From assembly GCF_003945235.1 (NCBI RefSeq), contig NZ_RSDW01000001.1, positions 30,001-62,000 of the forward strand: a DNA stretch of 32,000 bases, in the 5' to 3' direction. The translations under genes were made by a program, and so were the position numbers. Shown in pieces: positions 1 through 30,160 of the stretch. Numbering within the stretch: position 1 is the first letter of the stretch; each line of letters begins with the position of its first letter. Under the pieces are notes generated by a model that searched no databases, had not been told where the DNA came from, and saw only the letters and a program-made list of their open reading frames with translations. Source of the DNA: Edaphobacter aggregans. Lineage in GTDB: Bacteria > Acidobacteriota > Terriglobia > Terriglobales > Acidobacteriaceae.

Positions 1-164
1 ACCATAGTTGTTGTATCCACCTTGGTCTAGTGTAAATCGTGATTGCGGTGGAGGCGGGCGGGAGCATCTGCCGAGGTGCGGGATTTGGGCAGATTTGAGA
101 TGGTTATGATGCGTTGGTGCGAGGTTTGCTATTCTCGCGGTACGTCGTTGCCTGAGGCCCTGAG

Positions 165-1856: not shown

Positions 1857-1914
1857 TGACACATCCCCGACCGACCGACCCGCATCCGACAGTTGCAAAT
1901 GGAGGTGCCGGGCT

Positions 1915-2067
1915 ATGACAACACCATCAGGTCCCCAGAAATGCGCAAAAGAAGGCTGTAGTTGCATGGCGGAACCGGGTAGCAAATATTGTTCAACGCA
2001 GTGCCAGGATGCGAAGAAGTTTATGACGCTGAAGTGTGCTTGCGGCCATCCCGAGTGTTCCCATTGA
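1915..2067 (+). CDS. Small Cys/His-rich protein, probable SmtA/BmtA-type bacterial metallothionein (50 aa)
   Basis: Absent from the supplied ORF track (below 60 aa). ATG at 1915, TGA at 2065-2067, GGAGG at 1901-1905 (9-nt spacer). Translation: MTTPSGPQKCAKEGCSCMAEPGSKYCSTQCQDAKKFMTLKCACGHPECSH, with 8 Cys and 2 His. The blocks KCAxxxCxC / YCSxxC / CxCGHxxC are arranged as I recall for cyanobacterial SmtA (from memory, not searched). Confidence 0.6.
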   Translation: MTTPSGPQKCAKEGCSCMAEPGSKYCSTQCQDAKKFMTLKCACGHPECSH

Positions 2068-2231
2068 TTCGAATGAATTATTAGCAGGAGCCTTAAAGAA
2101 TGAGGCTGTTAGCGTGATGTGGGTGGAAATGACCCGGCTCCGTGAGCGCGGCGTGGAGATATCCTCTGTTGTTGCACCACGGTTGGTTCAATTCTGGGCC
2201 TCGGCGGCCCCAAACGGGGTATACTTGATAG

Positions 2232-3245
2232 GTGACCACTACCACCCTTGACCTGGCTGTAACAAACGAAAACGGCAACACGACAAAGACCAAGCGCGTA
2301 CTTCTCCTTAAGCCCCGTGGCTTTTGTGCGGGTGTTGTGCGGGCTATCGACATTGTCCAGATTGCGCTCGATACTTTCGGCGCGCCGATCTACGTCCGCA
2401 AGGAGATTGTTCACAATAGCTACGTGGTGAATGACCTCGCCAAAAAAGGCGCAATCTTCGTTAACGAACTGGACGAAGTGCCTGAAGGCGCACGGGTTAT
2501 CTATTCGGCCCACGGTGTCTCTCCGGCAGTTCGGGAGCGTGCCAAGGAGCGTGGGTTGAAAGTCATCGATGCGACCTGCCCGCTGGTGACCAAGGTGCAT
2601 GTTGAGGCGATCAAGTTCGCCAAGCAGGGTTATTCGCTGGTGCTGGTTGGGCATCGCGATCACGAGGAAGTCGAGGGAACCCAGGGTGAAGCCCCGGATG
2701 TGACGCAGGTGGTTTCGACCGTCGAAGAGGTTGCGGCTCTGGTTGTTCCCGACCCAAACAAGGTCGCTTATCTCACGCAGACGACGCTTTCGCTGGACGA
2801 GGCTCGCTACATGATCGAGGCCTTGAAGAAGAAATTCCCGAACATTATCGGGCCACACGCGCAGGATATCTGCTACGCGACTGAGAACCGTCAGACTGCG
2901 GTCAAGAATGTCGCTCATGGAGCCGACCTGGTTCTGGTGGTTGGTTCGCGGAACAGTTCGAACTCCAATCGTCTGGTCGAAGTCTCGAAGAATCTCGATA
3001 CGAACTCTTACCTGATCGACACAGCCGATGCCATCCAGCCTGATTGGCTCGACGGCGTCGATACGGTCGCTGTGACCGCGGGCGCTTCTGCTCCCGAGGT
3101 GCTGGTGAAGGATGTTGTTGAGTACCTGCAGGCGAAGGGCTATGGTTCGGTCGATGAGGTGGAGGTCATGCCGGAGAATGTCCGCTTCGGCCTACCGCCC
3201 GAGATCGTCCAAGCTATAGCGTCCGCTCCGCCAGCAGCACGGTAG
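2232..3245 (+). CDS. ispH: 4-hydroxy-3-methylbut-2-enyl diphosphate reductase (IspH/LytB)
   Basis: 337-aa ORF with a GTG start. Motifs 'KPRGFCAGVVRAI', 'DATCPLVTKVH' and 'NSSNSNRL' supply the conserved Cys ligands of the IspH 4Fe-4S cluster. First gene of the same-strand hopanoid operon. Confidence 0.92.
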   Translation: MTTTTLDLAVTNENGNTTKTKRVLLLKPRGFCAGVVRAIDIVQIALDTFGAPIYVRKEIVHNSYVVNDLAKKGAIFVNELDEVPEGARVIYSAHGVSPAVRERAKERGLKVIDATCPLVTKVHVEAIKFAKQGYSLVLVGHRDHEEVEGTQGEAPDVTQVVSTVEEVAALVVPDPNKVAYLTQTTLSLDEARYMIEALKKKFPNIIGPHAQDICYATENRQTAVKNVAHGADLVLVVGSRNSSNSNRLVEVSKNLDTNSYLIDTADAIQPDWLDGVDTVAVTAGASAPEVLVKDVVEYLQAKGYGSVDEVEVMPENVRFGLPPEIVQAIASAPPAAR

Positions 3246-3268
3246 ACGGCCAGAGTTATCCAGAGAGT

Positions 3269-5308
3269 TTGCCTCAGATGAGTGGTCAATCTTCACGCAA
3301 TCCGCAGACGGTCACCCAGCCCGCGCAGCCGCGCTTTGGGCGTATGGACCTTGGCCTGGAGCATGTCGCCAACGGCATCGCTCGCGCCAAGGAGTGGCTG
3401 CTTGGCCAGCAACATCCTGACGGGTACTGGTGTGGAGAGCTTGAAGCGGACAGCATGCTCGAGTCCGACTACATCTTTATGCACACGCTGCTCGGTACCG
3501 GCGACCCGGGCAAAATGGAGCGTGCCATCAACGAGATTCTCCGCCACCAGAATGAAGACGGTGGATGGAGCCTGTATCCGGGTGGACCTTCGAATATTAA
3601 CTACGGAGTCAAAGCGTATCTGTCACTGAAGCTTATGGGCTGGTCGAAGGACCACCCTGTGCTGGTGAAGGCGCGTGAGTGGGTGTTGGCGCACGGTGGT
3701 GTGACCGAGTGCAATACCTTCACTAAGATTTATCTCTGTGCGTTGGGTCAGTATGACTATGACGCTGTGCCGGCTATTCCGCCCGAGATCGTTCTCTTTC
3801 CTAACTGGTTCTACTTCAACATCTACGAGATCTCTTCGTGGTCACGCGGCATTTTGGTTCCGTTGTCGATCATCTACGCGAAGAAGCCGTTCAAGAAGCT
3901 TGCACCAGAACAGGGCATTGAGGAGTTGTTCGTCGGTGGCCGCGAGAACTCAAACCTGCATCTGCGCTGGGACAAGAAGCGTCCCGTCAGTTGGCGAAAT
4001 TTCTTCCTCTTTACCGATCGCATGGTTCACTGGTTTGAGCGCGTACACATTCGCCCGCTGCGTAAGGTCGCGATCAAAAAAGCTGAGAAGTGGATGCTCG
4101 AGCGATTCGAGAAATCGGATGGTTTGGGTGCGATCTATCCCGCGATGCTGAACTCCATCGTTGCGCTGCGATGCCTCGGGCGTTCTGTAGACGATCCGCA
4201 GATGATCCGTGCACTCGACGAATTCGAAAAGTTGGGTATTGATTGCCCCGACGGTACGGAAGACTACCCAACACCCACTTTCCGGATGCAGCCTTGCTTC
4301 CCGCCTGTATGGGATACGGCTCAGGCGATGTATGCTCTTGGCGAGGCAGGAGTCCGAAAGGATGATCCGCGCATGCTGAAGGCGGCTGACTGGATTTTGT
4401 CCAAGGAAGTACGTCAGAAGGGCGACTGGGCCGAGAAGGTCAAGAACGTCGAACCGGGTGGTTGGTACTTCGAGTTCAACAATGAGTTTTACCCGGATGT
4501 TGATGATACCGGGCAAGTTCTGCTGGCGTTGAACTGCGTCGACAATCCTCGCGAGCGCTATCAGTATGACGCTTGTCAGCGTGCGCTGAACTGGATATGG
4601 GCGATGCAGTGCAAGAACGGTGGATGGGCTGCTTTCGATAAGGACAACACCAAAAGCATCTTCCAGTACATCCCGTTTGCCGACCACAACGCGATGCTTG
4701 ATCCACCGACTGTCGACATCACCGGCCGCATGCTGGAGATGTTGGCGCAGTACGGATTTACGAGAAAGGATCCGCGCGTCGAGAAAGCTGTTCAGTTCAT
4801 CCTGAAGGAACAGGAGCCCGACGGAAGCTGGTTCGGGCGATGGGGCGTCAACTATCTCTACGGCACGTTCCTGGTTCTGCGCGGCCTTGAGGCGATGGGC
4901 TTCTGGAACCATGAGCCCGCAGTGCAGCAAGCCGCGGAATGGATTCGCATGGTGCAAAACGCCGATGGCGGATGGGGCGAGACCTGCGGCACGTATGACG
5001 ACCCCAACCAGCGCGGCATTGGGCCGAGCACGCCATCGCAGACGGCATGGGCGGTTCTTGGGCTGCTGGCTGCGGGTGACACGCGTTCCGATTCTGTTGC
5101 GAAGGGCGTTCGTTGGCTAGTGGAGCGCCAGCACAAGGACGGAAGTTGGGATGAACTCGTGCCGGGACGCAACGGCGAGAGCTACTACACGGGAACAGGT
5201 TTTCCGCGCGTCTTTTACCTTGGATATCACTTGTACAAGCAGTACTTCCCCTTGCTGGCGCTGACGACATACGAGCGCGCCATGGGGCGGGAAGAGGCGG
5301 CAGCGTAG
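3269..5308 (+). CDS. shc: Squalene-hopene cyclase
   Basis: 679-aa ORF from TTG 3269. ATG 3278 (MSGQSS...) has better spacing to GAGAG and may be the true start. Catalytic 'DVDDTG' (DxDD) motif. Repeated QW-type motifs (e.g. 'QNEDGGW', 'QCKNGGW', 'QEPDGSWFGRWGVNYLYGT', 'QNADGGWGE', 'QHKDGSW'). 'STPSQTAWA' and 'YTGTGFPRVFYLGY' closely resemble the Alicyclobacillus SHC sequence as I recall it. Confidence 0.96.
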   Translation: MPQMSGQSSRNPQTVTQPAQPRFGRMDLGLEHVANGIARAKEWLLGQQHPDGYWCGELEADSMLESDYIFMHTLLGTGDPGKMERAINEILRHQNEDGGWSLYPGGPSNINYGVKAYLSLKLMGWSKDHPVLVKAREWVLAHGGVTECNTFTKIYLCALGQYDYDAVPAIPPEIVLFPNWFYFNIYEISSWSRGILVPLSIIYAKKPFKKLAPEQGIEELFVGGRENSNLHLRWDKKRPVSWRNFFLFTDRMVHWFERVHIRPLRKVAIKKAEKWMLERFEKSDGLGAIYPAMLNSIVALRCLGRSVDDPQMIRALDEFEKLGIDCPDGTEDYPTPTFRMQPCFPPVWDTAQAMYALGEAGVRKDDPRMLKAADWILSKEVRQKGDWAEKVKNVEPGGWYFEFNNEFYPDVDDTGQVLLALNCVDNPRERYQYDACQRALNWIWAMQCKNGGWAAFDKDNTKSIFQYIPFADHNAMLDPPTVDITGRMLEMLAQYGFTRKDPRVEKAVQFILKEQEPDGSWFGRWGVNYLYGTFLVLRGLEAMGFWNHEPAVQQAAEWIRMVQNADGGWGETCGTYDDPNQRGIGPSTPSQTAWAVLGLLAAGDTRSDSVAKGVRWLVERQHKDGSWDELVPGRNGESYYTGTGFPRVFYLGYHLYKQYFPLLALTTYERAMGREEAAA

Positions 5309-5345
5309 GCCGTTACATTACAGACTTTTTTGGAGGAGACAACGG

Positions 5346-6485
5346 ATGGCAGTTCCAGTCTCGCAAGCTTGGACAGTTGCAACGTACGTTTTAAAACAGA
5401 AATTGATGGGCCGGAAGAGGTATCCGCTCGTGCTGATGCTCGAACCGCTCTTCCGCTGCAACCTGGCTTGCGCCGGCTGCGGCAAGATCCAGTATCCGGC
5501 ACATATCCTGAAGACCGACCTGTCGCCCGAAGAGTGCTTCAAGGCAGTCGAAGAGTGCGGTACGCCGATGGTCTCGATTCCTGGCGGAGAGCCTCTGCTG
5601 CATCCTCAGATGCCGGAGATTGTTGCCGGTCTAGTTGCGCGCAAGAAGTACGTCTACATGTGCACCAACGCCCTGCTGTTGAAAGAGAAGCTGCACCTCT
5701 TCAAGCCGAGCAAGTATCTTTCGTTTTCCGTTCACGTCGACGGCCAGCGCGAGCATCATGACTTCTCCGTCTGTCGAGAGGGTGGGTACGATATCGCGAT
5801 GGAGGGAGTTCGTGCTGCGGTTGCGGCAGGATTCCGCGTTACTACGAACACGACGCTCTTCGATGGTGCCGACCCCAACTCCGTGCGCGCACACTTTGAC
5901 GAGTTGATGGAAGTTGGTGTCGAGAGCATGATGGTCTCGCCCGGCTACACCTACGACAAGGCTCCTGACCAGAATCATTTTCTGGGCAAGGCGAAGTCGC
6001 GCAGGATGTTTCGCGCCATCCTTTCCAACCGTAAGAAGTCCTGGCGCTTCAATACGCATCCGCTCTTCTCCGAGTTTCTGATGGGCAAGCAGAACTTCGA
6101 ATGCACACCTTGGGGCATGCCGACGTTTTCGATCTTCGGCTGGCAGAAGCCGTGCTATTTGCTACAGGATGGTTACGCCGATACGTTCCAGGAACTGATG
6201 GAAACGACGAACTGGCAGAACTACGGTGCAAAGAGCGGCAATCCACAGTGTGCTAACTGCATGGTTCACTCCGGACACGAGGCCTCAGCAGTGGATTACA
6301 ACTTCGGCTCATTGAAGGGGTTCCTGATTACAGCAAAGAAATACATGTTCCCATCGACCTATCCAGACGAGGGCGCGATGAAGCTGTTGAACGAGTGGCG
6401 GCCAGAACATGCCAGCCCGCTGGTCCAGATTAAGGCCTCTGCCGGTACGGCCAACAATGAACTGCAGTCAGTTTCAGGAGATTAG
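5346..6485 (+). CDS. hpnH: Adenosylhopane synthase, radical SAM (HpnH)
   Basis: 379-aa ORF. GGAGGAG at 5333-5339, 6 nt before the ATG. Radical-SAM cluster motif 'CNLACAGCG' (CxxxCxxC). Length and position next to shc, hpnA and hpnG fit the HpnH family. Confidence 0.88.
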   Translation: MAVPVSQAWTVATYVLKQKLMGRKRYPLVLMLEPLFRCNLACAGCGKIQYPAHILKTDLSPEECFKAVEECGTPMVSIPGGEPLLHPQMPEIVAGLVARKKYVYMCTNALLLKEKLHLFKPSKYLSFSVHVDGQREHHDFSVCREGGYDIAMEGVRAAVAAGFRVTTNTTLFDGADPNSVRAHFDELMEVGVESMMVSPGYTYDKAPDQNHFLGKAKSRRMFRAILSNRKKSWRFNTHPLFSEFLMGKQNFECTPWGMPTFSIFGWQKPCYLLQDGYADTFQELMETTNWQNYGAKSGNPQCANCMVHSGHEASAVDYNFGSLKGFLITAKKYMFPSTYPDEGAMKLLNEWRPEHASPLVQIKASAGTANNELQSVSGD

Positions 6486-6490
6486 GCATC

Positions 6491-6937
6491 ATGGCGACTG
6501 AGCAACAGGAGCACCTGAAGATCGAACAACTGCGGCACCAGAGTGCCGACGAGCTCGAACACATCGAAGGTCGCGAACGCGAGAACCTTGAGGGATGGGT
6601 TCCGGCACTGGCTACGGATGCTGAGATTCGTGAGGCGTTGGAGAAGGCCTTTGATTATCGTGGCGATATCACCATCACTCGGAAGGATGGTTCGCAGGTC
6701 ACAGGCTATCTCTTCGACCGTCGCTCAGGCTCTTCGCTGGCGGACTCCTTTGTTCGCATCATTCCATCGAACGCACCGACAAAGGTGAACGTTGCCTACG
6801 CTGACATTGCCGCGCTGGCGTTTACCGGTCGCGACACTGCAGCCGGAAAAACCTTCGAAGCCTGGGTCAAGAAGTACTGGGAGAAGAAGGCAGCGGGCGA
6901 AAAGAACATCCAGATCGAACCCGAAAAGCTGGATTAA
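6491..6937 (+). CDS. Hypothetical soluble protein embedded in the hopanoid operon (no domain recognised)
   Basis: 148-aa ORF starting 5 nt after the hpnH stop, with GGAG inside the hpnH 3' end. No signal peptide, TM helix or cofactor motif. Acidic N-terminus, then a predicted beta-rich core ('DYRGDITITRKDGSQVTGYLFD', 'SFVRIIPSN..KVNVAYADIAALAFTG') and a basic C-terminal helix. Confidence 0.75.
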   Translation: MATEQQEHLKIEQLRHQSADELEHIEGRERENLEGWVPALATDAEIREALEKAFDYRGDITITRKDGSQVTGYLFDRRSGSSLADSFVRIIPSNAPTKVNVAYADIAALAFTGRDTAAGKTFEAWVKKYWEKKAAGEKNIQIEPEKLD

Positions 6938-6978
6938 TTTCCGCTGCAGGGTGAAGAACTCGCTGAATCCGTTCGTCT

Positions 6979-6993
6979 GCAAACTTCGTTTGC
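6979..6993 (+). promoter_or_regulatory. Small hairpin GCAAAC-ttc-GTTTGC in the only gap over 40 nt within the operon
   Basis: Perfect 6-bp stem with a 3-nt loop in the 78-nt gap between orf148 and hpnA. No clear U-tract follows. Possible attenuator or processing site, or chance. Confidence 0.2.
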
Positions 6994-7015
6994 TTCACAC
7001 CAGAGAGACTAAGAA

Positions 7016-8026
7016 GTGCGCGTATTTATTACGGGAGCGACGGGCTTCGTCGGGGCTCATGTGGCCCGAAAGTATGCGTCCGAGGGCGCAAGCCTTCGTT
7101 TATTAACCAGGCAGACGAGCAGGCTGGATGCACTGGCAGGTCTCGATGCAGAGACCGTGGTAGGCGATTTGCGCGAGCCGGAGAAGCTGCGCTCCGCACT
7201 TACGGGATGCGATGCGTTGGTTCATGTCGCCGCCGACTACCGGCTGTGGGTGCGCGATCCGCAGCAGATGTACGCCGCTAACGTCGATGGGACTCGCGAA
7301 TTGCTCCGGCTGGCGCGTGAGACCGGCGTACGGCGCGTGGTATACACGTCGAGCGTCGCCACCATGGGGTTCAAATCCGACGGGACGATAGTGAACGAGG
7401 ACACGCCCGTCTCGATCGTCGATATGATCGGCCATTACAAGCGGTCGAAGTTTCTCGGCGAGCAGGAGGCCATTAAAGCTGCAAAGGCCGGACAGTATGT
7501 GATGATTCTGAATCCGACCACACCCATCGGTCCCGGTGACGCGAAGCCCACGCCGACAGGTCGAATCATCGCCGACTTCCTGAATAAGAAGTTTCCTGCC
7601 TATGTAGATACAGGCCTCAACCTTGTTGACGTCGCTGAGGTGGCACGGATGCATGTTGAAGCTCTGGACCACGGAACTCCGGGCGAGCGGTACATCCTCG
7701 GCGGTGAGAATCTGACCCTCAAGCAAATTCTCGACCGTATGTCCGCGATCACCGGCCTCCCTTCGCCGACCATGAAAGTGCCGCATTCCGTTGCGATGGC
7801 GTTTGCTTTCTTTGACGAGACATTTACAGGCAAAATGCTAGGCAAAGAGCCGCGCGCTACAGTTGAGGCTGTGCGCATGGGGAAGAAGATGATGTTCGCC
7901 ACCTCGATGAAAGCTGAACGCGACCTCGGCTTCAAGGTGCTACCAATCTACAACGCGCTGCGCTCCGCAATCGAATGGTTCGTCGCTAACGACTATGCTC
8001 CTCCTTTCTCCAAGCCCACCCTATGA
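7016..8026 (+). CDS. hpnA: Hopanoid-associated NAD(P)-dependent sugar epimerase/dehydratase-family SDR (HpnA)
   Basis: 336-aa ORF with a GTG start. N-terminal Rossmann 'VFITGATGFVGAHV' and extended-SDR catalytic 'YKRSK' (YxxxK). Sits between hpnH and hpnG. Its stop overlaps the hpnG start (ATGA). Confidence 0.85.
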   Translation: MRVFITGATGFVGAHVARKYASEGASLRLLTRQTSRLDALAGLDAETVVGDLREPEKLRSALTGCDALVHVAADYRLWVRDPQQMYAANVDGTRELLRLARETGVRRVVYTSSVATMGFKSDGTIVNEDTPVSIVDMIGHYKRSKFLGEQEAIKAAKAGQYVMILNPTTPIGPGDAKPTPTGRIIADFLNKKFPAYVDTGLNLVDVAEVARMHVEALDHGTPGERYILGGENLTLKQILDRMSAITGLPSPTMKVPHSVAMAFAFFDETFTGKMLGKEPRATVEAVRMGKKMMFATSMKAERDLGFKVLPIYNALRSAIEWFVANDYAPPFSKPTL

Positions 8027-8703
8027 AAGAGTGTCCCGCCATCATCGCCGCGTTGCCCCGCGAGGTGAAGCATCTGGTACGAGGCTGGAAGCGGGAGCAC
8101 CTACCTGGCAAGATCCATGCCTATACCAACGATTTTGCGGTTGTCGTCTGCGCTGGCATGGGACCTGCACGCGCCACACTTGCCGTTCAGGCGGCGATGT
8201 CGCTTAAGCCTGTAACGGCGCTGCTCTGCGTAGGTGTTGCAGGTGCGTGCGATCCGTCCCTCGCTGTAGGAGACGTCGTTAAGGCAGGTGTTGTCGTAGA
8301 CACACAGTCGGGCGAACGATTCACAGACTCGCCGTTCAGGCAGGTGTTGGTCAGTACGCCAGCCATCGCCAGTGTTCGGGAAAAGCAACGACTCCATGCC
8401 TCGTATGGCGCTGCTGCCGTCGATATGGAGGCTGCAACCGTGGCGCGAATCGCTCAAGCGCACGATCTTGCATTTCATGCGATCAAGGCCATCTCCGACG
8501 ACGCGTCCTTCGAGCTTCATGAACTTGCTCGTTTTGCTACAGATGACGGCCAGTTTCGCGAGGCAGCATTTGCTGCACATGCGCTTCTGCGTCCACAGCT
8601 TTGGAGCAAACTGATACAGCTTGCAGGCAATAGCAAGCGTGCGATCAATGCCCTGACGAAGGAGCTTGAATCGCAGCTAGACTGGTATAGGCGGAGCGCT
8701 TAA
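8023..8703 (+). CDS. hpnG: Hopanoid-associated nucleosidase/phosphorylase, PNP_UDP_1 family (HpnG)
   Basis: 226-aa ORF. MtnN-like motifs 'GVAGACDP' and 'AVDMEAATVA'. 4-nt ATGA overlap with hpnA. The context matches the adenosylhopane nucleosidase step. Confidence 0.8.
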   Translation: MKECPAIIAALPREVKHLVRGWKREHLPGKIHAYTNDFAVVVCAGMGPARATLAVQAAMSLKPVTALLCVGVAGACDPSLAVGDVVKAGVVVDTQSGERFTDSPFRQVLVSTPAIASVREKQRLHASYGAAAVDMEAATVARIAQAHDLAFHAIKAISDDASFELHELARFATDDGQFREAAFAAHALLRPQLWSKLIQLAGNSKRAINALTKELESQLDWYRRSA

Positions 8704-8707
8704 ACGG

Positions 8708-9823
8708 ATGTCAACAGATCAGAACCAGCAAGACCTTACAGTTCCCACAACTATGCGTGCAGCCGTCTACCACGGCGTTAATGATGTGCGCGTTGAAACG
8801 ATTCCAGTTCCTGAAATCAGCCCTGGAGAAGTGTTGGTTAAGATTCATACCTGTGGGATCTGTGGGACCGACCTCAAGAAAATTCACACGGGTTCGCACA
8901 GCGCGCCGCGTGTCTTTGGGCACGAGATGTCGGGAACAATTGTTCGGGTGGGTGAAGGTGTCACAGGCTTCGCGATTGGCGATCGGGTGATGGCTTATCA
9001 CCACATCCCTTGCGGCGAGTGTTACTACTGTCGCAAACAGACGTTCGCGCAGTGCGAGGTCTATAAGAGGGTCGGTTGCACTGCTGGGTTTGCCCCTTCG
9101 GGTGGTGGCTTTGCGGAGTACATTCGTGTAATGGATTGGATCGTCCGGCGCGGGTTGGTGAAGATACCCGACGGTATTCCCTTCGAGCAAGCGGCCTTTA
9201 TCGAGCCGGTGAATACCTGCTACAAGGCGATCCAGTTGCTCAATCTTCAGTCTGACGAGACCGTGTTGGTCATCGGCCAGGGTTCGATTGGGATTCTTCT
9301 CGCAGCGCTGGCAAGAAAGACTGGCGCGACGGTGCTTACCAGCGACTTATATCCTGAGCGTCACGCTGTTGCTGCAAGATTTGGCCTTGATCATCCGCTC
9401 GATGCACGAGGCGATGTCGTGGCGGCTGCTAAAGCAGTTACTGAAGGTCGCGGCGCTGACGTAGCTCTGCTTGCAGTAGGGGGCGACGCGCTCATCAAGA
9501 TTGCAATGAATGCGATTCGACCCGGTGGGCGCGTGATGCTCTTCGCGGCGACGCAACACGGTGAGTCTCCGTTCGATCCTGCGGCCGTATGCATGGACGA
9601 GAAGACCCTTATGGGGTCCTACAGTTCATCGGTGGCGATCAACGACGAGGTTGCGCAGTTGGTGCTCGATGGTTATGACAATGGCTTTGACCTGACGCAG
9701 CTAATCTCTCACAGGTTTTCGATTGAGGATGCTGTGGCAGCAATTGAGCTGGCCTCTCACCCGCAGGCTGATTCGTTGAAGATCGTCATTCAACCTTCGA
9801 CTAATCTCGTGTCCGCTTCTTGA
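8708..9823 (+). CDS. Zinc-dependent medium-chain dehydrogenase/reductase (sorbitol/threonine-dehydrogenase-like), last gene of the hopanoid operon
   Basis: 371-aa ORF starting 4 nt after the hpnG stop. Catalytic-zinc motifs 'CGICGTDLK' and 'GHEMSG'. Structural-zinc 'CGECYYCRKQTFAQC'. Rossmann 'VIGQGSIGIL'. Confidence 0.9.
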   Translation: MSTDQNQQDLTVPTTMRAAVYHGVNDVRVETIPVPEISPGEVLVKIHTCGICGTDLKKIHTGSHSAPRVFGHEMSGTIVRVGEGVTGFAIGDRVMAYHHIPCGECYYCRKQTFAQCEVYKRVGCTAGFAPSGGGFAEYIRVMDWIVRRGLVKIPDGIPFEQAAFIEPVNTCYKAIQLLNLQSDETVLVIGQGSIGILLAALARKTGATVLTSDLYPERHAVAARFGLDHPLDARGDVVAAAKAVTEGRGADVALLAVGGDALIKIAMNAIRPGGRVMLFAATQHGESPFDPAAVCMDEKTLMGSYSSSVAINDEVAQLVLDGYDNGFDLTQLISHRFSIEDAVAAIELASHPQADSLKIVIQPSTNLVSAS

Positions 9824-11246
9824 CCTCAACGCTGAGCCGCTTGATCTTCTGGTTCAACGTTGAAAGCGGAATCCTGAAGTACTCGGCTGCTTCCGTCTGG
9901 TTCCAATGGCAGCGTTCCAGGCGATCTGCAATGATGCGCCGCTCGATCTCCTCCATCAGGTCGAAGAGGGAAGCGTCGGGCTGATGCTCCAGCAGTGTTG
10001 CCGAGTAGGTGTTGCCTGTCAATTGCGCTGGAAGCAACTCGGGCGTGATCATCTTCGAAGTAGAGAGTACGACGCCGCGCTCCATCGCGTTCTCCAGTTC
10101 GCGCACGTTGCCGGGCCACTCGTAGTCCATCAAGACGCGCATCGCCTCCGGTGACAACACCCGCTCACCGGTCTCATTCTCCTCGCCGTAGAACTTGAGG
10201 AAGTGTGCCGCCAGAAGAGGAATATCCTGGCGCCGCGAACGCAGTGGTGGCAGCTCAAGACAGATGACGTTCAAGCGATAGAAGAGGTCTTCCCGGAACC
10301 GACCGGCCCGCACCGCTTCCTGCAGGTTAACATTGGTCGCCGCGATGATCCGCACGTCTACCTGAATCTCCTGCACGCCGCCCAGGTGCATGAAGCGCCG
10401 ATCCTGCAGCACGCGCAAAATCTTGGCCTGCATGTCGAGGCCCATAGTGCCAATTTCATCGAGGAACAGCGTCCCGCCATTAGCGACTTCGAAGAGGCCT
10501 TTCTTAGCAGAGATCGCGGACGTGAACGCACCCTTGACGTGGCCAAACAGCGTGGACTCCAGCAGCTCTGACGGTACGGCACCGGTATTCACGGGAACGA
10601 ACGGACGATCTCGGCGCGGAGAATTTGCGTGGATGGCCTTAGCGAAGAGCTCCTTACCTGTGCCGCTCTCACCCTGCAACAGCACGGTCGAACGACTTGG
10701 AGCGACCTGTGCGATGAGGTCGAAGAGGCGTAGCATTGGCTCGCTCTTGCCGACAATGTTTTCGAAGTTGTACCGCTGCTTGAGCGTCCGTTTAAGCTGG
10801 ATTATCTCTTCTTCGGCGCGATGCTTTGCGATGGCGGTGCGAATGTCCGCGAGCAGCTTCTCGTTGTCCCATGGCTTCTGGACGAAGTTCTCAGCGCCTG
10901 CGCGAATGGCATCGACCACGTTACCAACTGTGCCGAATGCAGTGATCATGATGACCGGCAGGTTGGGCTGCATCTCGATGATGCGGGGCAACAGATCAAG
11001 TCCGCTCTCACCGGGCAATGCAAGGTCCAGCAGCAGCAGATCGAACTCATTGCGCGAGATCAGATCCATGCCCGTCGCGCCATCGCCCGCCATACTGACG
11101 GTGAAACCTTCCAGCGTCAGCAATGTATCGAGCGATTCGCGTATGGCCGCCTCATCATCGATGATCAAAATGCGGGGGCTGCCGGCGATATGCGCCGTAT
11201 CTTGCGGGCGGGCGGACTCTGCGGCCACCGCGGTTGTTTCAGACAT
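9801..11246 (-). CDS. Sigma-54-dependent response regulator (NtrC family: REC, AAA+, Fis-type HTH)
   Basis: The ORF track gives 9801..11279. The ATG at 11246 (MSETTAV...) overlaps the kinase stop as ATGTCTGA, so I call 481 aa. REC domain ('ILIIDDE', acceptor region 'LLLLDLALPG'). Walker A 'GESGTGKE'. Sigma-54 contact loop 'GAFTSA'. 'ESTLFGH'. C-terminal HTH 'NQTEAAEYFRIPLSTLNQKIKR'. Confidence 0.9.
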   Translation of the reverse strand: MSETTAVAAESARPQDTAHIAGSPRILIIDDEAAIRESLDTLLTLEGFTVSMAGDGATGMDLISRNEFDLLLLDLALPGESGLDLLPRIIEMQPNLPVIMITAFGTVGNVVDAIRAGAENFVQKPWDNEKLLADIRTAIAKHRAEEEIIQLKRTLKQRYNFENIVGKSEPMLRLFDLIAQVAPSRSTVLLQGESGTGKELFAKAIHANSPRRDRPFVPVNTGAVPSELLESTLFGHVKGAFTSAISAKKGLFEVANGGTLFLDEIGTMGLDMQAKILRVLQDRRFMHLGGVQEIQVDVRIIAATNVNLQEAVRAGRFREDLFYRLNVICLELPPLRSRRQDIPLLAAHFLKFYGEENETGERVLSPEAMRVLMDYEWPGNVRELENAMERGVVLSTSKMITPELLPAQLTGNTYSATLLEHQPDASLFDLMEEIERRIIADRLERCHWNQTEAAEYFRIPLSTLNQKIKRLSVEVKKRTRD

Positions 11247-14214
11247 GAATCGTCTTCCTCTCCAACTCCTGCGTATCACTTGCGCGCGCGGGCTCGGGGA
11301 TCACAGCAGTCCGGCCGCCGGAGGTAGGGAACTCCAGCTGGAAGGCTGTGCCGATGCCAACCTCGCTCTCGACGTGGATCTTGCCGGCATGCTCCTGCAT
11401 GATCCCATAGCTGACTGCCAACCCAAGGCCTGTGCCTTTATGCGCGCCTTCCTGCGGTTTGGTCTTCGTGGTAAAGAATGGATCGTAGATGCGGTGCAGA
11501 TGCTCGCGTTCGATACCCCCGCCGGAATCCTGAATGCGAACGAGCACCCGTCCCGCCCCACTGAAGGTTGCAATCCGCAGCGTTGCATTGGGGGTGCCTA
11601 GCATAGCGTCCTTCGCGTTCAGCATCAGGTTCAGGATGACCTGCTGCAGCTTGCCGCGGTTTCCATGGATACGCGGGAGCTGCGGGTCAAAATTGGTCTC
11701 GACACGAATCTTCGCCGTCTTCAGCTGATGGTCAAGCAGGGCAATCGTATCGCGTAACAGTTCGTTAAGATCGACGTCGGTGAACTCCGTCCCGCTGGTG
11801 CGAGAGAAGTTCAGCAGTCCGTTAACAATCTCCGACGCGCGGAAGGTCTGCTGCGTAATCTTCTCGAGCACCGGCGCGAGGCGCTCGTCATCTCGCATAT
11901 ATTTGGTCAACATTTGGGCATAGCTGGAGATGACAGCCAGCGGTGTGTTGACCTCGTGCGCGACCCCGGCGGCGAGCAAGCCGATCGAAGAGAGCTTCTC
12001 AGATTGTGTAAGCTGAGCCTCGAGCTGCATCCTGTCTGTAATGTCATCGACCAGAATGATCCGTCCGACAGTGATGAAGTCGCGTGTGACCAGCGGCGCG
12101 ATGGCAATATTGGCGGTCCGCACCTCACCGGTCGGCAGTGCTAGACGGAACTTGTAGAGTGTATGCGTCCCCTGCTCGTCGCGCACGCTGTTGAATCGTG
12201 AGACGAACTCCGGCGGGAAGACAGAGGAGAGCGGCTGGCGCAGCGCATCGATCCGAGGCTTCGCGTACATCGCCTCCATCTGTGCGTTCCAGCTTTCGAT
12301 CCTGTCGTCCAGATCGACCGCGAAGATGCCAATGTTGATCGATTCAACGATGTTCTCGTTGAACTCCTTCAACCGCTCGAAGTCGCTGATCTTCTGCTCA
12401 AGCCGACGGTAGAGCTGCGCGTTTTGAATAGCGATACCGATGTAGCCGGCCAGCGACTCCAGCAGTTCCATGTCTTCGCTGGAGAGGAAGTCTCCGTCAT
12501 CCGTGCGTCCCAGACCGATCACCGCGACCGTCCTGTTGCCGCCTCCCTCGCGATTGGCAACGCGGCAGGGCAGATAGTAGTTCAGGTCGAGCCTGCCTGC
12601 GCTTGAGCGCTGCGCCTCCGGCAGACGTAGTACCTGCTGCGGATTCTCGAGGAAGATATGATTGTTTGCGCCCGGCCGGTCGAAGTCGAAAAAGCGCACG
12701 TCCAGCGCCTTAAGGTCGGTCGCCTGCAGGTTCGTCAGTCCGTGTGATGCCGCCAGTTCAAAGTGTCGCTCGGCAAACGTATCATCGGTCTCCTTAGCAA
12801 GGAAGACCGCGACTCGCGTTACCAGCAGCGTCTGCGGCAAACGCTCGACGATGGAATCGACCAGCGCTCGCAGATCGGTCTGCGAGTTCAGCCCTCGGCC
12901 AAACTCCACCAGGGTCTCGCGGTAGTCGAATCGCTTTTGATCAAAGATCCGATCGACTCGCGCCTGAATCGCCCGCTTCAGCGGATCAAAGACTAGGCCG
13001 GTTACGATGACTGCAGCCAGAAATCCCCACGTACGCAGGCTGGGATTGTTTAGCCGTGCACGAACGACCTCTGCCGTTAACGCAATCACGCCGAAGTACA
13101 AGCCCACGAGCGATGCCGTAGCCAGCGTGTAGGTCACACCGCGCTTGAATATCAGGTCGACGTCCATCAACCGGTAACGCACAATCGCCCAACTGAAGGT
13201 CAGCGGAACAAAGACCAGCGAGAGCCCAGCTAACTTCTGCAGCAGGGTCGGCACGGCCGCATCCGACAGATAGGGGATGACATAAAGGACCGTGAACGGC
13301 GTAATCGCGATCATCGTGCCGCGAGTGAGCCACTTCAATTGCTGCCGCTCCAGCGCAGACTCAGCTCTCTTGTATCGGAACTGGAAGACGATTCCTGCGA
13401 TAACGTAGTAGAGCGCGAGATATCCGACCGCGATCTGGTCTAGACGATGGCGCAACACCTCGGTCGCCGACCAGTAGTGAAGCGCGACAAACTGTAACCC
13501 GATAAGAAAGATTCCCGGCAGGTAGAGGGCTACCGTCAGGAGGCGTCGGCCAAGGCGTTTGCGCTGCTCTCCTGAGGCAAAGCTAATTGCAAAGTGCAGG
13601 AAGAGCGCCGGTTGTAGCGCTCCGGCCGCAATGCGACCCCAGTAGATGATCGAATCAAAGGTGTCGAATTTGGTGGTGTAGTTGAAGGAATACAGCACAA
13701 ACGAGACGAGACAGAAGACGTAGAAATGCGTCGATTTGGGCGCAGTCCATCGTCGGAACAGGACGTAGATCCCGATACACAGGTACACCAGCGCAATAAA
13801 TCGCAGGCCGAGGTTGATGGACCGATCTGTCGGCTCCAGAATCACCTGAATATCGAGCTTAGCCGCACCCGAAAGATCGCTTGCGTGGGGAAGCGGCCTG
13901 AGAATCGAGTAGGTCGCATGGGCCCAGATGCCGCTGTGGAACATCTCGCGGACAAACGGAGCCAGCCGCTCCGTCGGTCTATCGTTGATGCTAACCAGCA
14001 CGTCCCCGGCGCGTACTCCGGCCCGCTGACCTGGTGAATCGGGGGGAACCTGCTCGGCTCGTAGACCACCCTGGGTTTCAACCCACCAGATGCCGTCCGT
14101 CGGTACGTCAAAGCTGCTTTCGCGCTCGAAGTTCATCGCGGCGAGCACACAGGCCGCCACCGTCGCCAAGGCGAGTGCGATAGCCAGAATGCGCGTTTGG
14201 GCAGCGTTCTTCAT
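11239..14214 (-). CDS. Sensor histidine kinase with extracytoplasmic PDZ domain, polytopic membrane region, GAF/PAS-like modules, HisKA and HATPase_c
   Basis: 991-aa ORF. TM1 ('ILAIALALATVAACVLAA'). PDZ-like segment at aa ~41-107 ('GGLRAEQVPPDSPGQRAGVRAGDVLVSINDRP', coordinates ~13894-14094). About nine further hydrophobic helices. Cytoplasmic sensory modules. H-box 'AAGVAHEVNTPLAVI'. ATPase G-boxes 'DSGGGI' and 'GTGLGLAVS'. Confidence 0.9.
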   Translation of the reverse strand: MKNAAQTRILAIALALATVAACVLAAMNFERESSFDVPTDGIWWVETQGGLRAEQVPPDSPGQRAGVRAGDVLVSINDRPTERLAPFVREMFHSGIWAHATYSILRPLPHASDLSGAAKLDIQVILEPTDRSINLGLRFIALVYLCIGIYVLFRRWTAPKSTHFYVFCLVSFVLYSFNYTTKFDTFDSIIYWGRIAAGALQPALFLHFAISFASGEQRKRLGRRLLTVALYLPGIFLIGLQFVALHYWSATEVLRHRLDQIAVGYLALYYVIAGIVFQFRYKRAESALERQQLKWLTRGTMIAITPFTVLYVIPYLSDAAVPTLLQKLAGLSLVFVPLTFSWAIVRYRLMDVDLIFKRGVTYTLATASLVGLYFGVIALTAEVVRARLNNPSLRTWGFLAAVIVTGLVFDPLKRAIQARVDRIFDQKRFDYRETLVEFGRGLNSQTDLRALVDSIVERLPQTLLVTRVAVFLAKETDDTFAERHFELAASHGLTNLQATDLKALDVRFFDFDRPGANNHIFLENPQQVLRLPEAQRSSAGRLDLNYYLPCRVANREGGGNRTVAVIGLGRTDDGDFLSSEDMELLESLAGYIGIAIQNAQLYRRLEQKISDFERLKEFNENIVESINIGIFAVDLDDRIESWNAQMEAMYAKPRIDALRQPLSSVFPPEFVSRFNSVRDEQGTHTLYKFRLALPTGEVRTANIAIAPLVTRDFITVGRIILVDDITDRMQLEAQLTQSEKLSSIGLLAAGVAHEVNTPLAVISSYAQMLTKYMRDDERLAPVLEKITQQTFRASEIVNGLLNFSRTSGTEFTDVDLNELLRDTIALLDHQLKTAKIRVETNFDPQLPRIHGNRGKLQQVILNLMLNAKDAMLGTPNATLRIATFSGAGRVLVRIQDSGGGIEREHLHRIYDPFFTTKTKPQEGAHKGTGLGLAVSYGIMQEHAGKIHVESEVGIGTAFQLEFPTSGGRTAVIPEPARASDTQELERKTIHV

Positions 14215-29228: not shown

Positions 29229-30160
29229 ATTGGAAAGCAATCAAGATCGTTGGCGAATACGATCGGCCCCGAAAACCGGCGCCTTATCTCGGCCTGAGTC
29301 TCATTCTCTTTCCCCAAAGTCCGCAGCATCCGATGCGACAGCACCAATTGCTTCACATGAGCATTCGCAGCGGTCGTTCCAATGACGGAAGGCGGCATAT
29401 GGAGATGCCTCTCCACCCCGGTAGCGCCCTCCGGCACGGCATTATGAGCGACAAATAAATCCGCATTCAACGCCAGCTGAGTCAGGCCCTCTCCTTCGCC
29501 GTTCGTATCTCCACTAAAGACAATCCGCTTGCCGCCAATCTCCACTCGCCAAGCCAGCGCAGGAAACGCACCATGAACGACGCTCACTGCATACAGCGCC
29601 ATATCGGCATTGCGAAACACGAGAACCGGCACTAAGGTAGCCGCAACATCATGCGGCTGCAATTTGTAGCTTCCGTCGGCGCCAGGATCCACGAGGTCGC
29701 TCAGATACCGATAAGCTCCATGCGGATCACTGAAGAGATCGCGCACAAACTCGGTGGTGGAAGGCATGAACTTGTTCCCCGAAGGGCCGTAGATCGGCAG
29801 CGGGCGATTGCGGTCTTCAAACCACGAAGAAAAGATCAAAGCAGGGAAGTCGCTGGTGTGATCGACATGAAAATGGCTGAACAGAAAAACGTCCACCTGC
29901 GACATCTGCGCTCCACTCTCCCCAAACCGAAGAGCGCTGCCGCCTCCTGCATCAACTATCACCCGCGCCTTACCGTTCTCCCATACCAGATAGCTGGTCG
30001 ACGCCCGCTTATCCTGCGACTCCGGGCCGCCTGAGCCGAGCACCTGCACCGAAACACCTACAGCGCCGCATGATTGCGCCGTTACAGGCGAAGCCTTACA
30101 CACACAGAGCAGGGACACAAAAATAAGGAGACCTTTCACCGATAGTCCCAGCGAGTCCAT
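29222..30160 (-). CDS. Secreted metallo-beta-lactamase-fold hydrolase
   Basis: 312-aa ORF. Signal peptide 'LLIFVSLLCVCKASPVTA'. Metal motif 'HFHVDHTSD' (HxHxDH). Later 'VVHG' and 'VLSHR' His ligands. Confidence 0.85.
   Translation of the reverse strand: MDSLGLSVKGLLIFVSLLCVCKASPVTAQSCGAVGVSVQVLGSGGPESQDKRASTSYLVWENGKARVIVDAGGGSALRFGESGAQMSQVDVFLFSHFHVDHTSDFPALIFSSWFEDRNRPLPIYGPSGNKFMPSTTEFVRDLFSDPHGAYRYLSDLVDPGADGSYKLQPHDVAATLVPVLVFRNADMALYAVSVVHGAFPALAWRVEIGGKRIVFSGDTNGEGEGLTQLALNADLFVAHNAVPEGATGVERHLHMPPSVIGTTAANAHVKQLVLSHRMLRTLGKENETQAEIRRRFSGPIVFANDLDCFPIK

Follow-up and report, generated by a model that had tools for sequence, protein, structure and literature searches.

The gene that follows hpnG in the hopanoid operon of the soil acidobacterium Edaphobacter aggregans, ug1, encodes an intact member of the zinc-dependent MDR superfamily, with both zinc sites predicted from its sequence. 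The neighbour conserved at greatest depth is a second, paralogous MDR gene, ug2, usually followed in turn by hpnCDE, an association that is new here. Chance falls far short of explaining how well the clustering of ug1 with hopanoid genes is conserved, and ug1 probably takes part, jointly with ug2, in the redox chemistry of the hopanoid pathway. The reading we favour, with somewhat less than even confidence, is that ug1 is the NAD(H)-type zinc MDR of the Acidobacteriota hopanoid supercluster and would act together with ug2 in redox chemistry on an oxygenated hopanoid intermediate. Since its constant partners are ug2 and the squalene genes and not hpnG, ug1 is just one among three candidates for the conversion of ribosylhopane to bacteriohopanetetrol (BHT); it is a possible enzyme of that step, no better supported than ug2 or HpnA. 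The stretch of DNA analysed, called the window below, comprises 32,000 nucleotides (positions 30,001 to 62,000 of contig NZ_RSDW01000001.1).

Table 1. Genes of the operon region and sequence motifs of ug1, in window coordinates
Feature	Positions	Strand	Basis
ispH	2232..3245	+	Pfam LYTB, E 1.4e-96; NCBIfam NF002189, 459 bits (cutoff 444)
shc, squalene-hopene cyclase	3269..5308	+	TIGR01507, 734.8 bits (cutoff 431)
hpnH, radical-SAM adenosylhopane synthase	5346..6485	+	TIGR03470, 529.5 bits (cutoff 225)
ug3, soluble protein of 148 aa after hpnH	6491..6937	+	Position conserved in Acidobacteriaceae, 46-92% identity
hpnA, extended-SDR "hopanoid-associated sugar epimerase"	7016..8026	+	TIGR03466, 476.7 bits (cutoff 367.65)
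hpnG-like gene, nucleoside phosphorylase family (adenine removal from adenosylhopane)	8023..8703	+	Pfam PNP_UDP_1; TIGR03468 best NCBIfam match
ug1, zinc-dependent MDR dehydrogenase, 371 aa, ATG start	8708..9823	+	ORF, Pfam, NCBIfam, AlphaFold, Foldseek
ug1 CGICGTD, aa 49-55; predicted catalytic-zinc Cys C52, additional Cys C49	8852..8872	+	Sequence, clade alignment
ug1 GHEMSG, aa 71-76; predicted catalytic-zinc ligands H72 and E73	8918..8935	+	Sequence, clade alignment
ug1 predicted structural zinc lobe C102-x2-C105-x2-C108-x7-C116, CGECYYCRKQTFAQC, aa 102-116	9011..9055	+	Read from sequence
ug1 E166 (IEPVNT), second Glu of TDH/polyol-DH-type zinc site	9203..9205	+	Clade alignment
ug1 GQGSIG, Rossmann dinucleotide-binding motif, aa 190-195	9275..9292	+	Clade alignment
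ug1 D213...R218, end of beta2, predicted NAD(H)-type cofactor determinant	9344..9361	+	Clade alignment
Convergent sigma-54-dependent response regulator	9801..11279	-	Pfam Sigma54_activat, Response_reg, HTH_8

The ug1 protein and its relatives

Two Pfam domains are recognised in the ug1 product above their gathering scores, ADH_N (98.6 bits, E 3e-28) and ADH_zinc_N (72.9 bits, E 3e-20), and the protein is 100% identical to an NCBI entry labelled "L-iditol 2-dehydrogenase [Edaphobacter aggregans]". A preliminary description of this DNA had reported a complete zinc-dependent MDR with catalytic and structural zinc motifs and a GxGxxG fingerprint, and every one of these motifs was found where it had been placed. 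Among 60 sequences of the ug1 clade, G50, C52, D55, G71, H72, E73 and G76 of the zinc-binding region are invariant, as are E166, P167, N169, G190, G192 and G195, while C102, C105, C108 and C116 are each at least 90% conserved. D213 and R218 are likewise invariant in these 60 sequences, down to 41% identity, and D213 falls in the same alignment column as the Asp in Thermus TADH (4cpd). The clade also has invariant residues of its own, namely K57, K58, R68, H98, H99 and the segment YK..G.TAGF.P.GGGFAEY. The AlphaFold model has a pLDDT of 93.9; the top 50 Foldseek matches to it are all MDRs, with TM scores of about 0.8 and at most 30% identity. A sequence check found no membrane segment.

From what is known of the family and from the residues conserved here, the catalytic Zn2+ would be bound by C52, H72 and E73, with E166 near, and would polarise the hydroxyl or carbonyl oxygen of the substrate. 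Hydride would pass between the substrate carbon and the C4 atom of the cofactor; this NAD(H) is expected to be bound by the GQGSIG Rossmann fold and read by D213/R218, and the Cys4 zinc lobe is predicted to be structural. At the cofactor-determinant position, ug2 carries V-K-R or G-R-R in place of the D213/R218 of ug1, and the end of beta2 in HpnA (LRLLTRQTS) is without an acidic residue. Thus ug1 looks NAD(H)-type, and ug2 and HpnA look NADP(H)-type.

To judge from model scores, no curated enzyme family claims ug1. The preliminary description had raised the case of orthology to a known threonine or sorbitol dehydrogenase, and none was seen: ug1 misses the cutoffs for L-threonine 3-dehydrogenase (TIGR00692, 157.9 versus 458.35 bits; NF003808, 162.6 versus 380 bits) and for the scyllo-inosose 3-dehydrogenase IolM (NF041097, 163.8 versus 450 bits), the latter two being its best NCBIfam matches, and matches no SDH-specific NCBIfam model above its cutoff. 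The fold resembles that of the polyol/sorbitol (L-iditol 2-) dehydrogenase and TDH branch, represented by human SDH (1PL6), whitefly ketose reductase (1E3J) and Pyrococcus TDH (2DFV), at TM scores of about 0.8. With this branch ug1 shares the Cys-His-Glu(-Glu) catalytic site, and it has a Cys4 lobe like TDH and an NAD-type Asp like SDH; both the Asp and the Cys-His-Glu site are in common with the human, sheep and whitefly SDH-type enzymes, to which ug1 is 25-27% identical. However, identity to the branch as a whole is only 25-30%, and the clade-specific invariant residues set ug1 apart from it.

For ug1 and ug2 alike, the nearest solved fold, which also ranks among the best sequence matches, is a structural-genomics target, the putative zinc-binding dehydrogenase of Sinorhizobium meliloti (PDB 4EJ6/4EJM). 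It is 29% identical to ug1, is itself uncharacterised, and has S-T-R at the cofactor position, like ug2 and unlike ug1. We considered assigning a substrate to ug1 from structure and rejected this, as the nearest solved neighbours are uncharacterised or diverse in specificity and all are at most 30% identical.

Genomic context: hpnG, ug2 and hpnCDE

In the window the gene order is ispH-shc-hpnH-ug3-hpnA-hpnG-ug1. The HpnG of the window scores 101.7 bits against TIGR03468, below the curated cutoff of 187.1, and so does every acidobacterial HpnG variant tested fall below it. ug3, already named in Table S1 of PMC5462960, has no match in Pfam or NCBIfam. The start of hpnG overlaps the stop of hpnA by 4 nt (8023-8026). 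The TAA of hpnG ends at 8703 and the ATG of ug1 lies at 8708, which bears out the gap of 4 nt given in the preliminary description. Since the convergent sigma-54 regulator gene overlaps the 3' end of ug1 (by 23 nt), ug1 is the last operon gene in this genome. That ug1 closes the operon, as had also been claimed, holds only in the Edaphobacter/Granulicella/Terriglobus branch, the only one in which this downstream regulator is conserved; elsewhere ug2-hpnCDE follow directly. Consensus scans for promoters and terminators as operon signals gave matches no more numerous than in shuffled sequence.

The linkage of hpnG and ug1 was already on record. This very gene, for a Zn-dependent alcohol dehydrogenase (about 370 aa), had been described by Sinninghe Damste et al. 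(2017, Front Microbiol 8:968; PMC5462960) under the name ug1 in cluster C (hpnA-hpnG-ug1) of Acidobacteria subdivisions 1, 2 and 3, with its function "not established" and no reaction proposed. They placed ug2 in cluster A, and noted neither the tandem pair nor the differing cofactor signatures.

Scanning genome contigs with ug1 left 80 loci, all from Acidobacteriaceae and 68-88% identical, and a metagenome scan with the protein P0122 returned peat Acidobacteriaceae loci only. hpnG lies directly upstream of ug1 in 78 of the 80 species genomes and in all 69 metagenome loci. Across the family the identity of ug1 (67-88%) is comparable to that of Shc, HpnH and HpnA, whereas that of HpnG is far lower (30-77%); counted from this identity, ug1 appears to be under purifying selection. 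Beyond Acidobacteriaceae, only one of ten informative contexts has hpnG next to ug1 (L166), and hpnG is absent beside ug1 in L031, L075, L167, L169, L170 and L172. L170 has an otherwise complete cluster in which hpnA is followed by ug1 without hpnG, and its hpnA/ug1 and ug1/ug2 junctions each overlap by 4 nt; in L169, L172 and L031, hpnG, hpnH and hpnA are all absent within 10 kb. The coupling of the dehydrogenase to hpnG put forward in the preliminary description stands for Acidobacteriaceae and is largely lost beyond them, the hpnG-ug1 junction being mainly an Acidobacteriaceae arrangement. That description had named a lack of hpn linkage of orthologues in other genomes as a telling case; such linkage is kept down to about 47% identity, alongside the unlinked clade members described below. 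L170 derives from MAGs named Acidobacteria, and the DUF1559/N_methyl and sulfatase genes in L167 hint weakly at Planctomycetota.

The more durable association is that with ug2, which directly follows ug1 in 42 of 80 genome loci, all 56 of 56 metagenome loci and 9 of 11 informative distant contexts. From one lineage to another, ug1-like proteins and ug2-like proteins each have their own kind as reciprocal best match, and the two fall into separate clades. Distant lineages of about 47-63% identity retain ug1-ug2-hpnCDE (L165, L166, L167, L169, L170 and L172), and in these as in about 100 Acidobacteriaceae loci the hpn-linked pair always abuts hpnC on its upstream side. In the Edaphobacter branch ug1 has been kept with hpnA-hpnG, and ug2-hpnCDE are located elsewhere. 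Two further candidates were discarded. A protein of 586 aa matching both ug1 and ug2 (P0271) was rejected as a natural fusion and hence as Rosetta-stone evidence; it is an assembly artefact, because frameshifts riddle its locus (L164), where shc is split in three and hpnA, hpnC and hpnD are fragmented. A conserved small partner gene of the pair was not upheld either: neither the 142-aa ORF that precedes the pair in L171 nor the QueF-like genes in L083 and L168 are related to ug3.

Within Acidobacteriota, then, ug1 shows conserved clustering with established hopanoid genes; across phyla it appears to be neither restricted to hopanoid producers nor general among them. Some members of the clade are found away from hpn genes (L081, L082, L083, L168 and L171). 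In three of these loci (L083, L168 and L171, from GCA_964628275.1, ERZ27267809 and ERZ25072999) the ug1-ug2 pair is present and the surrounding 8-10 kb contain no hpn gene, and lone homologues lie in unrelated contexts in one cyanobacterium and one Chthonomonadaceae genome. The L083 and L168 pairs lie near nucleoside-catabolism genes.

Which reaction ug1 might catalyse

The literature still assigns no enzyme to the step from ribosylhopane to BHT (PMC12583986), in agreement with the preliminary description. That description named HpnA as the competing candidate; HpnA is indeed the published one (PMC5462960), and ug2 is a third that it missed. Like ug1, HpnA is an uncharacterised nicotinamide-dependent oxidoreductase of the same operon; unlike ug1, it is a metal-free SDR, predicted to be NADP-type and common among hopanoid producers outside Acidobacteriota. 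Burkholderia reportedly does not need it to make BHT, and Rhodopseudomonas lacks it (PMC5462960). A search of the literature found no mutant or in vitro evidence of a hopanoid substrate for ug1. If ug1 and ug2 do act on an oxygenated hopanoid intermediate, as we favour, their most plausible target would be the ribose-derived C32-C35 head group from HpnH and HpnG. Against this reading stand the three pairs without a nearby hpn gene and the single homologues in the cyanobacterium and Chthonomonadaceae genomes.

According to the preliminary description, ug1 itself would be a candidate to reduce the ring-opened ribosylhopane aldehyde, the product of HpnG, to BHT with a nicotinamide cofactor. ug1 could be this reductase: it lies directly after hpnG (at 4 nt here) in nearly all Acidobacteriaceae loci, it is an intact enzyme that, by model scores, is no orthologue of known TDH, SDH or IolM, the step has no assigned enzyme (PMC12583986, PMC5462960), and only tetrafunctionalised BHPs are found in cultured E. 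aggregans and other subdivision-1 strains (PMC5462960). We nevertheless consider it unlikely, given that adjacency to hpnG is lost outside Acidobacteriaceae (L170, L031 and L075 among others) and that coupling to hpnG/hpnH does not hold wherever ug1 occurs. Cell-free reduction of ribosylhopane in M. organophilum (Bodlenner 2015) reportedly used NADPH, and these are said to be the only biochemical data on that step; the predicted NAD(H)-type signature D213/R218 may sit poorly with this, so that on cofactor grounds the step would fit ug2 or HpnA, with their NADP-type signatures, at least as well as ug1. Secondary alcohols and ketones are the usual substrates of TDH/polyol-DH-type MDRs, some of which oxidise C1 of aldoses to the lactone, so that aldose reduction would be atypical of them. 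Additionally, no candidate gene turned up near the hpn clusters of 48 hpnH-containing Alphaproteobacteria (PMC12583986), and therefore ug1 cannot be the universal enzyme.

That the hpn-linked pair always abuts hpnC could equally point away from the C35 side chain, to squalene or precursor chemistry tied to HpnCDE and acting on, for example, farnesol/farnesal, hydroxysqualene or another squalene-derived lipid. The loci with no hpnG, hpnH or hpnA within 10 kb (L169, L172 and L031) are in keeping with this idea, to which we likewise give little probability: we know of no step in the HpnCDE squalene route that needs a zinc alcohol dehydrogenase, ug1 of the Edaphobacter branch stayed with hpnA-hpnG when ug2-hpnCDE moved away, and HpnC, HpnD and HpnE alone are enough for squalene synthesis in E. 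coli (summarised in PMC5462960). It is quite improbable that ug1 is a common soluble dehydrogenase of polyols, sugars or amino alcohols in central metabolism, a passenger of the operon with no hopanoid substrate. Its best family similarities (scyllo-inosose 3-, threonine 3-, galactitol-1-P and xylitol/sorbitol dehydrogenases), the lack of a membrane segment, the clade members in non-hpn contexts and the nucleoside-catabolism genes near the L083 and L168 pairs would suit such a role, but hopanoid synteny holds from 100% to about 47% identity with frames overlapping or nearly abutting, and every curated equivalog cutoff is missed by a wide margin.

A more specific proposal, and a highly improbable one, is that the two enzymes form a redox couple on the polyol head group: the NAD+-type ug1 would, in the manner of sorbitol dehydrogenases, oxidise C-34 of BHT, the carbinol adjacent to the terminal CH2OH, and the NADPH-type ug2 would re-reduce the 34-ketone from the other face, which would yield 34R/34S BHT pairs. 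SDHs prefer 2S,4R polyols, and the 34S,32R configuration of BHT resembles that preference. As a less exotic variant, ug1 or ug2 may be the missing ribosylhopane reductase.

Implications for hopanoid biosynthesis

Bacteriohopanepolyols are among the major lipids of bacterial membranes, and geohopane biomarkers derive from them. Since 2010-2015 an enzyme for the conversion of ribosylhopane to BHT has been lacking, and the step is even shown as non-enzymatic in some reviews. With HpnA, ug1 and ug2, three uncharacterised nicotinamide oxidoreductases occur in one Acidobacteriota supercluster, and the search is thus narrowed to a small, testable set. The conserved ug1-ug2 pair, with its opposite predicted cofactor preferences, provides a concrete basis for experimental design. 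If the proposed oxidation and re-reduction at C-34 were true, the couple would be the enzymatic origin of the widespread 34R/34S BHT stereoisomer pairs used as biomarkers; if neither ug1 nor ug2 acts on the side chain, their tight link with hpnCDE would point to new chemistry around bacterial squalene synthesis.

ug1 in the hopanoid operon of the window

The operon that carries ug1, the gene for a zinc-dependent MDR dehydrogenase, was the only place in the window where hopanoid genes were found; promoter and terminator scans were uninformative. The ug1 protein is 100% identical to the NCBI entry 'L-iditol 2-dehydrogenase [Edaphobacter aggregans]' and, as the preliminary description had it, is a complete enzyme with both domains and every motif named (amino acids 49-55, 71-76, 102-116 and 190-195), its ATG following the hpnG stop after a confirmed 4 nt gap. 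A convergent sigma-54 response-regulator gene overlaps the 3' end of ug1, making ug1 the operon's last gene in this genome; elsewhere, however, ug2-hpnCDE come next, so that the claim that ug1 closes the operon does not hold generally.

Features of the window and neighbourhoods of distant ug1 homologues (percentages are identities to ug1)
Sequence	Feature	Position	Strand	Remarks
Window	ispH	2232-3245	+	first gene of hopanoid operon
Window	shc	3269-5308	+	hopanoid operon
Window	hpnH	5346-6485	+	hopanoid operon
Window	ug3	6491-6937	+	148 aa; no Pfam or NCBIfam family
Window	hpnA	7016-8026	+	hopanoid operon
Window	hpnG-like phosphorylase gene	8023-8703	+	best family TIGR03468
Window	ug1	8708-9823	+	371 aa; Pfam ADH_N and ADH_zinc_N
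Window	sigma-54 response regulator and large 7TM-PDZ-GAF-PAS histidine kinase	9801-14214	-	convergent to hopanoid operon
L165	ug1-ug2-hpnCDE			63%; contig begins at ug1
L166	hpnG-like gene-ug1-ug2-hpnCDE			52%; HpnG-like identity backed by TIGR03468
L167	ug1-ug2-hpnCDE	1-6107		53%
L169	ug1-ug2-hpnCDE			~47%
L172	ug1-ug2-hpnCDE			~50%
L170 (MAGs named Acidobacteria)	ispH-shc-hpnH-hpnA-ug1-ug2-hpnCDE			~50%; no hpnG; 4-nt overlap at each of the two ug1 junctions
L083, L168, L171	ug1-ug2 alone	L083 7601-10102; L168 8769-12114		~48-53%; no hpn gene within 8-10 kb
L081 (Phormidium)	lone homologue	5678-9056		42%; unrelated context
L082 (Chthonomonadaceae)	lone homologue			48%; unrelated context
L164	acidobacterial cluster copy	10001-11761 ('fusion')		63%; full of frameshifts

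Sinninghe Damste et al. 2017 (PMC5462960) described acidobacterial clusters A (ug2-hpnC-hpnD-hpnE), B (ispH-shc-hpnH-ug3) and C (hpnA-hpnG-ug1); the gene and its hopanoid clustering are thus prior art, published in 2017 as ug1. In their Table S1, ug1 appears as 'Zn-dependent alcohol dehydrogenase (ca. 370 AA)', and the entry for ug2 reads 'Zn-binding alcohol dehydrogenase (ca. 350 AA)'; each function is given as 'not established'. For the step forming bacteriohopanetetrol (BHT) they suggested HpnA rather than ug1. That this step lacks an assigned enzyme agrees with a 2025 survey, where the enzyme converting ribosylhopane to BHT 'has not yet been established' (PMC12583986); a 2026 review shows a scheme with the step as non-enzymatic (PMC13459092). 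Our literature search found no paper giving ug1 or ug2 a reaction, and as far as it shows a reaction hypothesis for ug1 would be new.

The regulator/kinase pair downstream of ug1 (62-91% identity) is kept only in the Edaphobacter/Granulicella/Terriglobus branch, precisely the one whose ug1 locus lacks ug2-hpnCDE. The acidic, soluble ug3 product is entered as 'ug3, hypothetical protein' in PMC5462960. Almost every Acidobacteriaceae locus has ug3 right behind hpnH (46-92% identity); the distant cluster L170 lacks it.

The HpnG of the window matches TIGR03468 best but scores 101.7 bits where the cutoff is 187.1, and the same goes for all acidobacterial variants tested (80-101 bits). Among the copies upstream of ug1 in the window, L001, L005, L007, L019, L038 and L059, there are at least two strongly divergent types, with ~40% mutual identity, between flanking genes that are 84-88% identical. 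Copies in L001-L004, L011 and L014 are 71-77% identical to that of the window, and those of the L038 type have a ~60-aa insertion. Within this conserved operon, hpnG looks like a case of allele replacement or very fast evolution. In the type strain E. aggregans DSM 19364 (L005, NZ_JQKI01000016.1), identity to the window is 84% for HpnA, about 87-88% for ug1 and only 41% for HpnG, and on the latter two values the window's source genome probably belongs to a different species despite the shared name.

A conserved pair of dehydrogenase genes

A genome scan for ug1 yielded 80 species-representative Acidobacteriaceae loci (68-88% identity). With the window proteins as tblastn queries, hpnG was detected directly upstream of ug1 in 78 of these, L031 and L075 being the two in which it was not found, and hpnA lies upstream in ~73. 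The hpnA-hpnG-ug1 trio is also kept in loci that lack shc and hpnH, for example L029, L032 and L046, and hpnG-ug1 alone was detected in L026. Conservation of ug1 across loci (67-88%) is on a par with Shc, HpnH and HpnA; that of HpnG is 30-77%. A metagenome scan seeded with a 69% representative gave 80 peat loci, and hpnG precedes ug1 in all 69 with sufficient flank, bearing out the linkage of ug1 orthologues to hpn genes in other genomes.

The second MDR gene, ug2, lies 0-280 nt downstream of ug1 in 42/80 genome loci and likewise follows it in 56/56 metagenome loci with sufficient downstream DNA. After ug2 come two SQS_PSY genes and an amine-oxidase-family gene, that is hpnC-hpnD-hpnE, which gives the full order ispH-shc-hpnH-ug3-hpnA-hpnG-ug1-ug2-hpnC-hpnD-hpnE; in Edaphobacter, Granulicella and Terriglobus, the window's branch, the cluster is broken after ug1. 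Proteins of the ug2 type form a separate clade: in L083 the first MDR is 48% identical to ug1 versus 33% to ug2, and the second 47% to ug2 versus 39% to ug1.

We compared the neighbourhoods of more distant clade members at 12 loci (see table). Most of these keep ug1 next to ug2, so that what is conserved is the tandem of the two genes, to which hpnCDE are often attached. The hpnG-ug1 junction is largely a family-level trait: the proposed coupling of ug1 to hpnG stands within Acidobacteriaceae, but is lineage-specific and not a general rule. Locus comparison shows ug1 embedded in the hopanoid supercluster and paired with ug2, and reveals a conserved two-dehydrogenase module.

Several distant loci have features of their own. 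In L167, a B12-binding radical-SAM gene, a YdjC-family gene and a GT21-family glycosyltransferase gene accompany the cluster, domain families that would fit HpnJ, HpnK and HpnI; DUF1559/N_methyl and sulfatase genes suggest a planctomycete-like genome, in which case the pair is linked to hopanoid genes in a second phylum. In the related non-hpn loci L083 and L168, a QueF-family gene and WYL/EAL regulators (in L168 also ProDH) stand before the pair, and a divergent block of nucleoside-catabolism genes (cytidine deaminase, PNP, NupC-type transporter, pyrimidine-nucleoside phosphorylase) lies ~4 kb away, a weak hint that in those organisms the pair may act on a ribose-derived substrate. The Phormidium gene, divergent from an adjoining gene for a 636-aa FAD-dependent oxidoreductase (PF12831), is followed downstream by genes for APS kinase and polysaccharide export; the sequences from cyanobacteria group tightly in a branch of their own, ~42% identical to ug1. 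Apparent ug1-ug2 'fusion proteins' (586 aa; entries P0271, also P0415) are artefacts of frameshift-rich long-read assemblies: L164 is frameshift-ridden, with shc split into three ORFs, and they are no evidence of gene fusion.

Enzyme family and predicted cofactors

No curated NCBIfam equivalog claims ug1. Its best scores against cutoff are 164/450 for IolM (scyllo-inosose 3-dehydrogenase), 163/380 and 158/458 for Tdh and 144/550 for GatD, the Tdh values setting it apart from the curated threonine dehydrogenases. Against 1.84 billion cluster representatives, matches drop from 69% to 47% and then to generic MDRs at ~35%, which lack the clade signature (HHxPC, AQC..YK..G.TAGF.P.GGGFAEY, EPVNTC.KA, GSYS) seen down to ~40% identity. 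Among 60 clade members, C52, H72, E73 and E166, a zinc site of the threonine/polyol dehydrogenase type, are invariant, as are D213, R218, K57, K58, R68, H98 and H99. The solved structures closest in sequence share ~30-35% identity across the aligned stretch. An AlphaFold model from a 60-sequence alignment (pLDDT 93.9, pTM 0.92) has as nearest PDB fold neighbours, each at <=30% identity, an uncharacterised S. meliloti dehydrogenase (4EJ6/4EJM), butanediol dehydrogenase, Pyrococcus threonine dehydrogenase and whitefly ketose reductase. The ug1 product is an intact MDR, its gene is under purifying selection, and it is an uncharacterised new member of a known enzyme kind.

In MDRs, an Asp at the end of strand beta2 (Asp223 in horse liver ADH, Asp203 in human sorbitol dehydrogenase) confers use of NAD(H). 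D213 of ug1 occupies this position in the Rossmann fold, aligned with the Asp of Thermus TADH (4cpd), so that NAD(H), not NADP(H), is the predicted cofactor. The T-S-D213 of ug1 is replaced by V-K-R, G-R-R or G-R-G/N in each of the seven ug2 sequences examined, aligning with S-T-R of 4EJ6, whose second deposit, 4EJM, has a bound ligand, reportedly NADP. The beta2 strand of HpnA ends in LRLLTR-QTS or LLVRK-TS, with no acidic residue. From these signatures, ug1 is predicted to be an NAD(H) enzyme, and ug2 and HpnA NADP(H) enzymes.

Possible reactions of ug1

Our preferred reading, held tentatively at slightly below an even chance, is that ug1 is a hopanoid-pathway redox enzyme acting with ug2. 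With NAD(H) as hydride donor or acceptor, it would act on an oxygenated carbon in a pathway intermediate, most plausibly in the ribose-derived C32-C35 head group, which is favoured because it is a polyol/lactol of the kind handled by this MDR branch and because ug1 remained with hpnA-hpnG when the cluster broke. The constant adjacency of the pair to hpnC would instead suit a squalene- or precursor-level role for ug1-ug2, which we consider improbable. Given this placement in the supercluster, that ug1 is a housekeeping passenger gene in the operon seems very unlikely.

The narrower proposal that ug1 itself reduces ring-opened ribosylhopane to BHT draws support from the intact MDR and the hopanoid linkage, but is weakened by the lineage-specific hpnG coupling, the NAD(H)-type signature and the overlooked ug2, and now appears unlikely. 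HpnA, named as the competing candidate, remains a rival in the operon, predicted to be of NADP(H) type, and ug2 is a third, missed candidate. Bodlenner et al. in 2015 reportedly carried out ribosylhopane reduction in M. organophilum cell-free extract with NADPH, to our knowledge the sole biochemical demonstration of that reduction. If so, ug2 and HpnA are more obvious candidates than ug1 for a biosynthetic reduction, although ug1 may perform an NADH-driven one.

By analogy, ug1 might alternatively oxidise the ribosylhopane lactol to ribonylhopane, as MDR glucose dehydrogenases catalyse the analogous lactol to lactone reaction. It could also oxidise the C-34 carbinol for re-reduction by ug2, a candidate epimerisation; BHT often occurs as 34R/34S pairs, and the literature searched names no gene behind them. 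Ribonylhopane lactone is mentioned for certain R. palustris mutants in PMC4263297, which also cites studies of the C35 skeleton in Nitrosomonas. The BHT-reductase problem is not solved by ug1, but is narrowed to a short, testable list of candidates.
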